A stretch of 63,691 nt of DNA, filler included, from Reclinomonas americana ATCC 50394 (taxonomy: Eukaryota), in the NCBI GenBank assembly GCA_048213135.1. It is 20 parts of 20 records of this genome, joined end to end, with 100 filler letters (N's around TTAATTAATTAA, not from the genome) between each part and the next. Parts side by side here need not be neighbours in the genome. Positions count along the whole stretch, not along the records: positions 5,593 to 7,082 come from AFZH01024061.1; positions 7,183 to 8,566 come from AFZH01024062.1; positions 8,667 to 18,169 come from AFZH01024064.1; positions 18,270 to 19,735 come from AFZH01024065.1; positions 19,836 to 21,891 come from AFZH01024067.1; positions 21,992 to 25,101 come from AFZH01024068.1; positions 25,202 to 29,463 come from AFZH01024069.1; positions 29,564 to 31,675 come from AFZH01024070.1; 12 more parts are not named here. One strand, given 5' to 3'. Made by a program: the position numbers and the translations under genes. The notes beneath the pieces were generated by a model. The model saw only the letters and a program-made list of their open reading frames with translations. It did not search any database and was not told the DNA's origin. Shown piece after piece: positions 5,593 to 58,993 of this stretch. How positions within the stretch are numbered: position 1 is the first letter of the stretch; each line of letters opens with the position of its first letter.

Positions 5593-8500
5593 GCATACAC
5601 ACCACAAGCCAAACGACAGATTGTCTGTGTGGCCAGTCGCCGCCATCGCAAAGAACACGGCGAGGAAAATGAAGCGCCGGTACAACTGGTAACTCTCGTA
5701 CCACACGAAGCGCGGCTTGAAATGTGAGTACAGGCCGCCGAAACGTCTCTTGAAAGACTCGTCTTGCAGCCGTGCCGGGTTCGCTGTGCGCATGCGCACA
5801 AGTATCCATCCGGAGATGGCTGGCGCGGCCGCCGTCACCAGGAACACGGTGCCGTACAGAATCAGCAAGTAGAAGTAGGAGCCAGAGCACTCGATACTGG
5901 GCTTCAGCAGCACAACGCGCGTCTCGTCGACCGGGGTGCACGTGAAGTAGCTCAGGCACGTCTCCCCGATGCCCTCGAATGCGCCGACACCGAGCACCAC
6001 GGTTGTGCTGATGTAATAATCGGGCGCAGCAGTACGCGTGAACCAGCGTAGCACGCGTCCACACAGGCCAGTGCGCTTGCGACTTGTAGTGCCGCTCCGG
6101 TGATCCGCGGTGCAGCACCGCAGCGCCCACGCCAGCGTTCTGTGAGCCACAAAGAGCAGCCACAAGAGCGCCACATACACCAAGGGCATAATGAGGTGCC
6201 ACGCCATGCTCAGCTGCGGAGAGACTGGGAACGGGCAATGCTCGTTGCCGAAAGCAGGCACCCAAAAGTTGACAATCCTGGTACATATGTTTTGCAGGGT
6301 GAGTATGCAGTAGAGCTATCAAGACATCTTGCTTTTTCCGTATGCATCTCCCTTTTCCCAATCATGCACGCAACTTGCTCAGACTCAGCAGTTCAATGTT
6401 GGGATAGAACAGCAGCGCCGTAGTCTGCATCTCGAATAGGATCATCTTTGTGGATCCGGCAACCTCGCCCTGTGACAACAGATGCTGCAAGCACGTGCAA
6501 TCACTATGTGAGGCACGAGAATTCAACTAGAGGGGGAGCATGCACATGCATCAAACCTGCACGAACACAATGCCGAGCGCACGGGCAAACATGAACGCAG
6601 TAGCACCGGCATTGGCGGAGGGGCACTCGATGCACTCAGCGTTCCACTCCGAGTATCCTGCGCGCATCACCATTTGTGCGTCAGAAGTCAACTCAGTACC
6701 GTTTGGAATCCGGGCGCAATACACTCTCATCGATTAGCATTCAGCACACTGACACATATCTATGTCGGTGTTGCCACTCCGCCTCCATCAATCACTCTGA
6801 AGTGCGGTGGTCTCACTTCCGCTCGCTGTCAGACGATAGCAATCACCAATCACTGTTTGCCTCAAATCACTTCATACGTGTCAACAGAGGCTTCCGTTCG
6901 TCGCTCTCTCTCTCTCTCCCTCTTTCTGTCGATCCCAGTCTGATATCCCACCTCTCTCTCTCTCTTTCTCTCATTGTCTCTCTCTCTGTCTCTCTTTCTC
7001 TCTCTTTCTCTCTCTCTCTCTCTCTCTCTCTCTCTCTCTCTCTCTCTCTCTCTCTCTCTCTCTCTCTCTCTCTCTCTCTCTCNNNNNNNNNNNNNNNNNN
7101 NNNNNNNNNNNNNNNNNNNNNNNNNNTTAATTAATTAANNNNNNNNNNNNNNNNNNNNNNNNNNNNNNNNNNNNNNNNNNNNCGCTCTATGTCTATCCCA
7201 CACATCTATATGTCACCCCACTCTCACTCCGTCACTGTGGAGTAGTTTTTCTGTGGTGCTGCTTCCTCTCCAGTCATCTCGTTTCGCTTTCTTTTGCGCT
7301 CCCGTCCCTTCGTCGTTCCTTCTTCTGTCTCTCTGCCACACTCTCCCAATCTCTTTCTCTCCTTTCTGTCTCTTTCTTACTGCTTCTTTCTCATCTCTCT
7401 CTGTCCGTCTCTTGTTAATCCCATTCCTCTCCCACTCCGTCACTGTGGAGTGGTTTTCCCTTGGTGTTGTTTCCTCTCCAGTCATCTCACTTCTCAAACA
7501 CAAGTCGCATCTCGCTTTCTATTGCGCTCCCGTCCCTTCGTCGTTCCTACTTCTGATCTCTTTCTCTCCTGCCTATCTCTCTCTTTCTGCCTCCTTGACC
7601 TTCTCATCTCTAATTTCTTTTTGAATATCCCCTTCCTCTCCCACTAATCAATAGTCCCAGTCTGTCAAACGCCTCCTGTATTTAACACTCCCTTCTCCTG
7701 CACTCCTCTCTTGCCTTCCTTCTCACTTCTCTTCCCCTATACCACCCTCCCCTCCCCCTCTTCTGTTCGCACCTTCGTCACATGCCCCACACAGAGGCGA
7801 GTCCGACCGCCGATGCGAGTCTTCTCGGCACATATACGTTATGTCGTCGTATATAGTGTACGCTAGCGCTGTCCAAGAAAAATAATGAGCATCGTAGAGC
7901 ACCACAGTGTGTGTTTACCAGCGGCGTGCGTAACTGACACCGCCCTGTATCACATCCCCATCGCGCTCGCAAAAACTGTATGGACACTGGTAGATGGTGA
8001 CATTTGCGTTAGGTCGTTGTCGATACGTTGCGAGCGGAGGCGACCAGAAGTTGTCGGGCAAGGCTAGAATGCCGTTGCCAGGGCACAGAGCATATGGCAG
8101 ACACTGGCTGCACTGCTGGTCCTCCGAAGGTAGGCCGAGATTAAACGATCCCACAGCGCACAGCTGCATGAATGAGTGAGCTATTATCGAGAAACCATTT
8201 CATCGTCTCCCTCTACCCCCACTTCCTTCCTTTCTCTCTTCCACTCATGTCTCTCTCTCTTTTCCTGTTTTGTCCTCTCTCTTCCTCTCTTCCTTACCTC
8301 TCTTTATCCTTTCCTTTGTTTCTCTCTTCCACTCAGCTCCCTCTTTCTTCCTGTTTCGTCCTCTCTTCCTCTCGTCCTGGCTTCTCTCCCTCCCTCCCAT
8401 CACTCTCCTCCATCCATCCCTCCCTTTCCCTCTCCTCCCTCTCTCTCCTCCTTCTCCTCCTCCTCCTTCTCCTCCTCCTCCTTCTCCTCTTCATCCTTCT

Positions 8501-58577: not shown

Positions 58578-58993
58578 CGAGCGCCACCACTGGAGGACCT
58601 GCCGAGCACCATGTACACCGACGAATCGTTTGTGGATCCCAATAAGAAGCCGTTTGGCTTGTCGCTGACGGTGAGCCGTGCCATGAAATGCACGTTCCTA
58701 GTTGTTGTTGTTGTTGCTCATCTCTCACTAACGCAGAACTTTGACACGGCGCACGGCATCATTGTGACGGTGGGCAAGCCGGAGACGGCCGACATCACCA
58801 AGTTTGTGGCAGATCGGGACTTCACGTTGCGTAACAGAGTTCTCTGTGCCTGGCGGGCGAGTCGCCTCACTTTTTTCTCTCTCTTGTGCGTAGACGGTAC
58901 ATTCCCAAACGCGAGAGTGCACTCGCCAGCCAGACATTCATACATCGACGACGAATTCCACCCATAGAGCGACCGCAGGCGCAGTCGAGATGA
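58578..58993 (+). CDS. 3' exons of a eukaryotic gene, possibly the end of the CFAP92-like gene
   Basis: Exons joined by introns, including 58826-58893, give ...KFVADRDFTRYIPKRES...QSR*. Confidence 0.4.

Follow-up and report, generated by a model that had tools for sequence, protein, structure and literature searches.

We analysed an assembled stretch of 63,691 bases from the protist Reclinomonas americana ATCC 50394 (GenBank assembly GCA_048213135.1), hereafter the window, in which 20 small contigs are joined by 100-base linkers made up of N44, TTAATTAATTAA and N44 (for example at 1777–1876 and 58427–58526). Eukaryotic genes with short introns occupy 16 of these contigs, about 55 kb with a GC content of 52–63%, and include genes for coatomer gamma (COPG), a WD40 protein, a kinase, a flavin amine oxidase, a SHIPPO-repeat (ciliary) protein and a Peptidase_S74 repeat protein. 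In these contigs GT–AG introns have a second kind of start, real and abundant, which is marked by the motif GTTGCG(T). As an original prediction for this DNA had proposed, the motif is offset by one base from the standard donor: GTTGCGT is the GGTGCGT of a G/GTGCGT donor (the slash marks the exon–intron boundary throughout) with its second base changed from G to T, and the GCGT block lies one base farther from the cut.

The original prediction had listed eleven intron starts of this kind, and a sequence check confirmed GTTGCG at every one of its coordinates and on the strand given. The last exon base is A, C or T at all eleven and never G, as had been claimed (in order along the window: a, a, a, c, a, t, a, t, t, a, c), and T stands at +7 in nine. 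A YAG follows 59–97 nucleotides (nt) 3′ of each site, preceded in ten of the eleven by a CTNAY branch-like motif; the exception, 57612, has TTGAC as its branch-like motif and CAG at 85 nt. The donors that had been read after G at 32664, 33146, 33648, 34135 and 34733 in the Peptidase_S74 repeat gene have the sequences claimed for them, and the one A/GTGCGT reported in COPG is present at 29066(−).

GTTGCGT is tied to intron 3′ ends

As a bare hexamer GTTGCG is not over-represented (64 copies in the window versus 57 ± 7.5 in shuffles), and enrichment was therefore tested on its association with intron 3′ ends instead. A generic 3′ signal was defined blind to the donor, as a CTNAY and the first YAG to come about 8–36 nt after it. 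A ranking of the 256 GTNNNN hexamers by the presence of this signal 45–130 nt downstream, made over both strands of the 16 eukaryotic contigs, has GTTGCG at the top (28 of 61 copies, p = 3.4e-5), against a background of 1604 of 7240 (22%) for all GT. When hexamers of any start are ranked by their occurrence 50–105 nt upstream of 3′ signals, TTGCGT comes first (19/39) and GTTGCG second (24/61), with a background of 14.3%. The heptamer GTTGCGT is enriched in its own right, with 23 copies versus 12.5 ± 3.3 in dinucleotide shuffles, a count reached in 0 of 100 shuffles, and all 23 copies lie within eukaryotic contigs. A 3′ signal is found at 57–97 nt for 16 of the 23 versus a 15% background (p = 6e-9), and the controls for this link stay at background, with 2 of 23 for the reverse complement and 3 of 16 and 1 of 13 for permuted heptamers.

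Likewise, GTTGCG led the donor hexamers, in 7 of 57 predicted introns, when a gene finder was run with a flat donor model. Our self-written gene finders were used just for this tally and for collecting standard donors blind to the −1 base, the last base of the exon. Weak coding potential and the presence of several open frames make them noisy: the final version got only one of the six homology-defined COPG introns exactly right (28789), and also gave a COPG donor at 27675 that is in frame, 12 nt from 27687, shares its acceptor and is inseparable from it by homology.

Requiring GTTGCG together with a 3′ signal at 50–100 nt yielded 27 sites. Two were dropped, 23733(−) as the antisense image of the 23664 intron and 44742(+) as the sole site after G, with a branch-to-end distance of six bases; 57612 was added, giving 26 candidate introns (Table 1), of which 15 lie beyond the earlier eleven and four have protein-level support. 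An acceptor model found 207 AG sites scoring ≥4 versus 116 in shuffled sequence, which suggests some 90–100 introns in the window and hence a share for the class of, very roughly, a quarter to two-fifths. A separate test with an acceptor model trained on the GTTGCG class is circular for that class and was used for the standard class alone. By gene, the class accounts for none of the six homology-defined COPG introns, two of four in the amine-oxidase gene and about 7 of 13 in a gene at 55.3–58.9 kb. The label 'atypical' that these donors had been given does not fit, since their motif outranks every other donor motif in the window.

G is excluded from the last exon base

The −1 base at the 26 GTTGCG sites is A in nine, C in nine and T in eight, and G in none, whereas in 32 curated standard introns of the G/GTNNGY type it is G in 28, A in three (two GTGCGT and one GTGAGT) and C in one (Fisher p = 1e-12 for 0/26 versus 28/32). 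Homology defined seven of these standard introns; the others were taken from paralogy, or from signals combined with gene models. Because the set was partly curated by eye, a second count was made with the model blind to the −1 base, and G precedes 21 of its 28 standard-type donors. The same dependence appears in bulk: G/GTNNGY is tied to 3′ signals (57/246), and H/GTGCGT, where H is A, C or T, is at background (10/72). The six copies of G/GTTGCG in the eukaryotic contigs have a 3′ signal in no case (0/6). Use of a nearby standard donor instead was rejected, as an in-frame G/GTNNGY lies within 30 nt of none of the 26 sites. With G expected at 17–20%, its absence from 26 sites has a p of about 0.003–0.008, and the missing G exceeds a mere loss of the requirement for it. 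G is likewise scarce at the first base past the acceptor (3/26 versus 12/32 in standard introns, p = 0.035).

The donor signal is confined to the first seven intron bases, with T at +7 in 17 of 26 sites and with positions −6 to −2 and +8 to +16 unconserved. Among H/GTT-NN-GY sites, a clear tie to 3′ signals is seen for GC as NN alone (20 of 38), with 5 of 15 for CT, 3 of 9 for TC and background values for the others; standard donors tolerate any NN, with GC and AC showing the highest enrichment rather than the AA or GA expected of canonical U1. The two GTTCTG sites that had been proposed as further examples of the shift, at 22592(+) and 55936(+), do have the sequence A/GTTCTGY; their role as donors was not confirmed, the H/GTTCTGY group having a 3′ signal in 5 of 15 cases against the 15% background. 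Together with H/GTTTCGY (3/9), they possibly belong to a minor GTT-NN-GY fringe of the class.

Both classes share branch sites and acceptors

Beyond the donor, the two classes do not differ in length, branch distance, pyrimidine content, branch motifs or last four bases (GCAG or ACAG), with medians for the GTTGCG and standard classes of 69.5 versus 68 nt for length and 19.5 versus 18 nt for branch distance. Introns of the GTTGCG class are about 57–97 nt long. All 26 begin with GT and end with AG by construction, all end in YAG (C at −3 in 23, T in three) and all contain a YTNAY branch site, with the motifs CTCAC, CTGAC and CTCAT as in the standard set and also CTGAT. As 25 of the 26 were preselected for CTNAY, only the resemblance to the standard set is informative here. 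These matching lengths, branch sites and acceptors point to one major-type spliceosome for both classes.

The 58 curated introns strongly favour R-CAG acceptors, with GCAG or ACAG at the end of 47, and branch motifs CTCAC, CTGAC or CTCAT about 18–20 nt upstream. A repeated element or introner family was considered and rejected: all-against-all blastn of the 26 intron bodies gave low-complexity matches only, and no duplicated flank was seen among those of the 26 that were compared by eye. One intron, 23664–23735(+), has a perfect 8-nt terminal inverted repeat, with GTTGCGTG at its start and CACGCAAC just before the final AG, and this repeat also gives the opposite strand a GTTGCGT, at 23733. 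A comparison by eye of a few other introns of the class showed no such inverted ends.

Protein-level support for four junctions

Removing the interval gives the correct protein at four of the 26 sites, 48632 and 49432 as judged by homologues, 39383 by SHIPPO frames and 32108 by paralogous modules. In the amine-oxidase gene, a 25-residue insertion relative to four of four homologues aligned with tblastn falls exactly over 49432–49358, and once this interval is removed the spacing is one residue off that of the homologue. Across 48632–48560 the homologue alignment (tblastn) shifts frame, and the flanking blocks then stand eight residues apart, as in the homologue. Standard donors are used in the same gene, G/GTTCGT at 49004 and G/GTGGGT near 48491, where the intron is about 550 nt long. 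At 39383, both of the joined exons match the Pfam SHIPPO PG-rich repeat in exactly the joined frames (E = 0.018 and 0.0021, both below Pfam's cut-off), and the repeat pattern is restored by splicing and not by read-through. The repeat protein encoded at 31776–35545(+) consists of paralogous modules, each with a terminal G-x-T-G-x-F-A motif and a phase-1 intron, followed by a C-terminal Peptidase_S74 (endosialidase chaperone) domain. Splicing at 32108, in the first module, places the FA motif 19 residues from the R-L/I motif, the same spacing as in the three paralogous modules that have standard G/GT donors (32664, 33146 and 33648), with the 32108 donor placed two codons upstream of where the paralogous introns sit.

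Informative matches in a Pfam scan of 51 exon fragments flanking the sites were to SHIPPO and Amino_oxidase only. The contig-19 exon at 57257–57610 had 0 homologues among 1.84 billion representatives, and the seven sites in its gene, which has no detectable homologue, are therefore read from splice signals, from their collinear order along a single strand and from open frames. The protein collections searched lacked a close relative; for coatomer gamma, at 27.5–29.4 kb on the minus strand, the best match is 35% identical. All eleven of the earlier introns had been described as frame-restoring, and this holds at the protein level for 32108 and 39383. The other nine have open frames at best, which is weak evidence because several frames are often open in sequence of 57% GC.

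Table 1 Candidate introns that begin with GTTGCG (lower-case letter, last exon base; earlier-listed, among the eleven sites of the original prediction; new, found here)
Feature	Position	Strand	Length (nt)	Donor	Evidence and remarks	Listing
GTTGCGT-class intron	6278..6374	-	97	a/GTTGCGTG...CCAG	read-through meets a stop after 4 codons; spliced frame open for 229 codons	earlier-listed
GTTGCGT-class candidate	10602..10662	-	61	c/GTTGCGTC	CTCAT branch motif, TCAG end; signals only	new
GTTGCGT-class intron	23664..23735	+	72	a/GTTGCGTG	read-through gives an immediate in-frame stop	earlier-listed
GTTGCGT-class candidate	26846..26908	-	63	t/GTTGCGTT	signals only	new
GTTGCGG candidate	27083..27154	-	72	a/GTTGCGGA	signals only; weaker	new
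GTTGCGC candidate	29660..29728	+	69	a/GTTGCGCT		new
GTTGCGT-class intron	32108..32169	+	62	a/GTTGCGTC	phase 1; paralogous-module spacing	earlier-listed
GTTGCGT-class intron	32387..32445	+	59	c/GTTGCGTT		earlier-listed
GTTGCGT-class candidate	36189..36245	+	57 (or 62)	c/GTTGCGTC	62 nt with the CAG end at 36250	new
GTTGCGG candidate	36596..36665	+	70			new
GTTGCGT-class candidate	36730..36794	+	65			new
GTTGCGC candidate	37008..37078	+	71			new
GTTGCGA intron	39304..39383	-	80	a/GTTGCGAC	phase 1; SHIPPO frames	earlier-listed
GTTGCGT-class candidate	42632..42713	-	82		signals only; near contig end	new
GTTGCGA candidate	44465..44537	-	73		signals only; weak	new
GTTGCGT-class candidate	45823..45896	-	74			new
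GTTGCGG candidate	47017..47076	+	60		weak	new
GTTGCGT-class intron	48560..48632	-	73	c/GTTGCGTC	amine-oxidase gene; homologue frame change	new
GTTGCGT-class intron	49358..49432	-	75	t/GTTGCGTG	amine-oxidase gene; in frame, stop-free; homologue gap	new
GTTGCGT-class intron	55644..55711	+	68			earlier-listed
GTTGCGC intron	56373..56436	+	64			earlier-listed
GTTGCGC intron	56550..56618	+	69	a/GTTGCGCG	same gene as 56373; read-through gives an in-frame stop	new
GTTGCGT-class intron	57188..57255	+	68		phase 2; links two open frames (208 and 182 codons)	earlier-listed
GTTGCGT-class intron	57612..57696	+	85		TTGAC branch-like motif; gene model chose 57892, acceptor less sure	earlier-listed
GTTGCGT-class intron	58184..58257	+	74			earlier-listed
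GTTGCGT-class intron	58826..58893	+	68		one gene-model run chose a later acceptor	earlier-listed

Recognition and origin of the class

In U1 small nuclear RNA (snRNA) the canonical 5′ end is ACUUACCUG, containing the universal ACUUACC, in which two pseudouridines face +4 and +5 of the intron; it ranks among the most conserved RNA sequences known. Duplex energies were computed with RNAduplex for this canonical end (AUACUUACCUG), from which that of the organism may differ. Four natural GTTGCG sites pair at −1.8 to +0.5 kcal/mol, compared with −5.3 to −13.3 for standard donors of the window, −2.5 for A/GUGCGU and −14.0 kcal/mol for the metazoan GUAAGU reference. The exon end shows no complementarity to U10/G11 of U1 (CA), with A at −1 in 9 of 26 sites, C at −2 in 8 of 26 and no enrichment of either. 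A strict need for G at +4 and C at +5 would imply a partner able to read both bases.

The best explanation, which we put forward tentatively, is that the introns form a genuine second donor class that would be read through a non-canonical or second U1 5′ end. The simplest partner would be a U1-type 5′ end with G–C complementarity where canonical U1 has its two pseudouridines, and this could take either of two forms: a single divergent U1 (approximately ...ACGCACC...) that serves both registers, or an additional U1 variant (approximately ...ACGCAAC...) complementary to GUUGCGU throughout. Speculatively, keeping G out of −1 would stop the standard register from competing. By our own reasoning from the known ACAGA pairing, U6 cannot account for G+4 and C+5, and a one-base bulge would be needed for it to form G:C and U:A pairs with +6 and +7.

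Several points weigh against recognition by such a U1. What qualified a site was having GTTGCG and a 3′ signal, which lets in some false ones, roughly 4–6 of the 26 as predicted from the 15% background; the sample is one window with about 55 kb of eukaryotic sequence, all junctions are known from DNA sequence alone, and the standard set of 32 introns was partly chosen by eye. The duplex energies ignore pseudouridine, U1C and other proteins. A divergent U1 5′ end is a strong claim given how conserved this sequence is, and an Rfam search of the window found no snRNA gene at gathering thresholds, with low-complexity false matches to microRNAs and small RNAs the only ones at E ≤ 5. Under either form of the U1 model G at −1 could be dispensable, but its complete absence goes unexplained.

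The original prediction had pointed to shifted or bulged pairing with U1, and, with the aid of U1 proteins, canonical U1 (and U6) could in principle read GUUGCGU routinely, either one base out of register or by bulging U+2/U+3. The single base change between GTTGCGT and GGTGCGT would let +6G/+7U stand in for +5G/+6U, the preference for T at +7 (17/26) resembles that for Y at +6 in standard donors, and both registers are established experimentally in human cells, as passages of PMC4856993 report. We nevertheless consider this rather unlikely, as the canonical duplexes are near zero in every register. In the shifted register the exon end should complement U10/G11, and it does not; in the bulged register G at −1 should pair with C9 and be favoured, and it is found at 0 of 26 sites. 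Canonical U1 should moreover favour A or G at the displaced +3/+4 positions, giving GUUAAGU-like sites, and GC at +4/+5 is near-obligatory instead, while H/GTGCGT, which pairs slightly better (−2.5 kcal/mol), is rarely used, with 3′ signals at background. The original prediction thus finds support in part, for the one-base offset and the link to the −1 base, but not for atypical status or canonical-U1 pairing. A separate minor-spliceosome-like system, with snRNAs of its own removing these introns, is very improbable. U12-type donors, of the form RTATCCTT with a branch motif of TCCTTAAC near the 3′ end, also have a long, near-invariant intronic motif and no exon consensus, as seen here; GTTGCG(T), however, has no likeness to RTATCCTT, the branch motifs are CTCAC, CTGAT, CTCAT and CTGAC, and branch motif, branch distance, pyrimidines and acceptor are those of standard introns in the same genes, and a U12-type identity was rejected.

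The motif might instead be mainly a mark of origin, in which lineage-specific intron gain, by introner-like or other insertion, brought in introns with a 5′ end of their own at sites other than G/G and the motif was kept as functional. There is no exon consensus on either side, including the G-poor position after the acceptor, and the class is absent from conserved COPG (0/6), supplies two of four introns in the amine-oxidase gene, for which only prokaryote-like relatives were detected (about 35% identity), and about 7 of 13 in the gene without a detectable homologue; the 8-nt terminal inverted repeat of the 23664 intron would also fit. Set against this, the intron bodies are alike only in low-complexity runs, the flanks (some compared by eye) show no target-site duplication, and inverted termini occur in one intron and in none of the few others inspected. 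As the principal account of the motif, origin by insertion is improbable; it is silent on how the motif is recognized and is compatible with the recognition models. On these small numbers, with no class member in COPG, frequent members in the bacterial-like oxidase and the orphan gene, and G-poor flanks, the class may be enriched among gained introns. A combined version, in which one major spliceosome defines intron starts in two parallel ways, is doubtful in similar degree: a dedicated GUUGCGU-complementary U1 would serve younger introns inserted away from G/G, standard U1 would serve G/GUNNGY, and G at −1 would be excluded against competition. That the class is an artefact of misplaced junctions, or a pattern arising from composition or repeats, is hardly credible. 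The junctions are read from genomic DNA, several frames are often open, and the gene models are noisy, with one of six COPG introns exact and one 12 nt off; the donor-blind enrichment with its reverse-complement and permuted controls, the shuffles, the four protein-supported junctions and the dissimilar intron bodies all argue against it.

Relation to known donor classes

The usual view is that nearly all eukaryotes read intron starts with a single, almost invariant U1 5′ end, trading exon contacts against intron contacts along a continuum. The pattern seen here departs from this, in that a rigid seven-base motif occurs in about a third of introns with a one-base offset, exclusion of the favoured exonic G and almost no pairing to canonical U1. 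If true genome-wide, it would provide a natural system for studying how the cut site is fixed under out-of-register U1 pairing, whether U1 5′ ends can co-evolve with donors, and whether new introns differ from old ones in their signals. In this organism, gene finders that use a single donor matrix will misplace junctions of the class.

Human 5′ splice sites in a shifted (+1) or +2/+3-bulge register are rare, with 68 predicted +2/+3-bulge sites, according to passages of Tan et al. 2016 (PMC4856993), which summarize the work of Roca and Krainer. As described there, these sites resemble the GTTGCG class in that the intronic block is one base farther from the cut, the −1 base is not G and the cut still falls at GU. 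By contrast, the human sites are rare and pair with canonical U1 including the exon end, whereas the class here makes up about a third of introns, lacks exon complementarity, needs GC and has near-zero pairing. In plants and animals, two overlapping 5′ splice-site classes trade exon-side against intron-side contacts, as set out in passages of PMC9803359, PMC11732430 and PMC11842720. The window shows a similar trade between G at −1 and intronic strength, its standard class needing G at −1 and the other a perfect intronic motif. Unlike those plant and animal classes, which in these passages share one register and form a continuum, the two classes here are mutually exclusive at −1 (0/26 versus 28/32) and their intronic motifs are one base out of step.

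A protist precedent for more than one U1 5′ end, fitting a variant-U1 explanation, comes from the diplonemid S. specki, for which passages of PMC12621601 describe two U1 genes with different 5′ ends, together with diplonemid donors of the form (G)/GTATG and rare YTRAY branch motifs. The odd introns and U1 variants of diplonemids led us to consider, and then set aside, an affinity with that group. In the passages on S. specki the variant U1 is tied to no second donor consensus, whereas in the window a donor class is seen and a U1 gene is not. A full-text literature search for GTTGCGT or GUUGCGU as a splice motif gave nothing splice-related among the matches listed, which is weak evidence that the motif is undescribed, and a genome paper showing such a logo may exist.

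Other features of the window

Adjoining contigs often carry one gene that continues across the linker. The amine-oxidase gene runs on the minus strand from 51280–51435 (contig 18) into 47811–50159 (contig 17), the repeat gene spans the linker at 34272–34371, and the gene at 53.5–59 kb spans that at 58427–58526. The sole relatives detected for the flavin amine-oxidase gene (47811–51435, minus strand) are prokaryote-like monoamine oxidases of about 35% identity, one of them named Micromonospora. This gene has at least four spliceosomal introns, two of the GTTGCGT class and one of about 550 nt with a purine-rich start; it may have been transferred, with the introns gained afterwards.

Four contigs look bacterial (1877–3676, 3777–5492, 18270–19735 and 19836–21891), with 65–68% GC and long intron-free open reading frames that match CGDB (C-glycoside deglycosidase beta), AP_endonuc_2 (xylose-isomerase-like TIM barrels), GMC_oxred_C, NtrY_N and ACR_tran (AcrB). 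They represent either assembly contamination or recent transfers. The SHIPPO (sperm-tail PG-rich) repeat gene lies at 38718–39680(−), and its presence suggests that the organism builds cilia or flagella.

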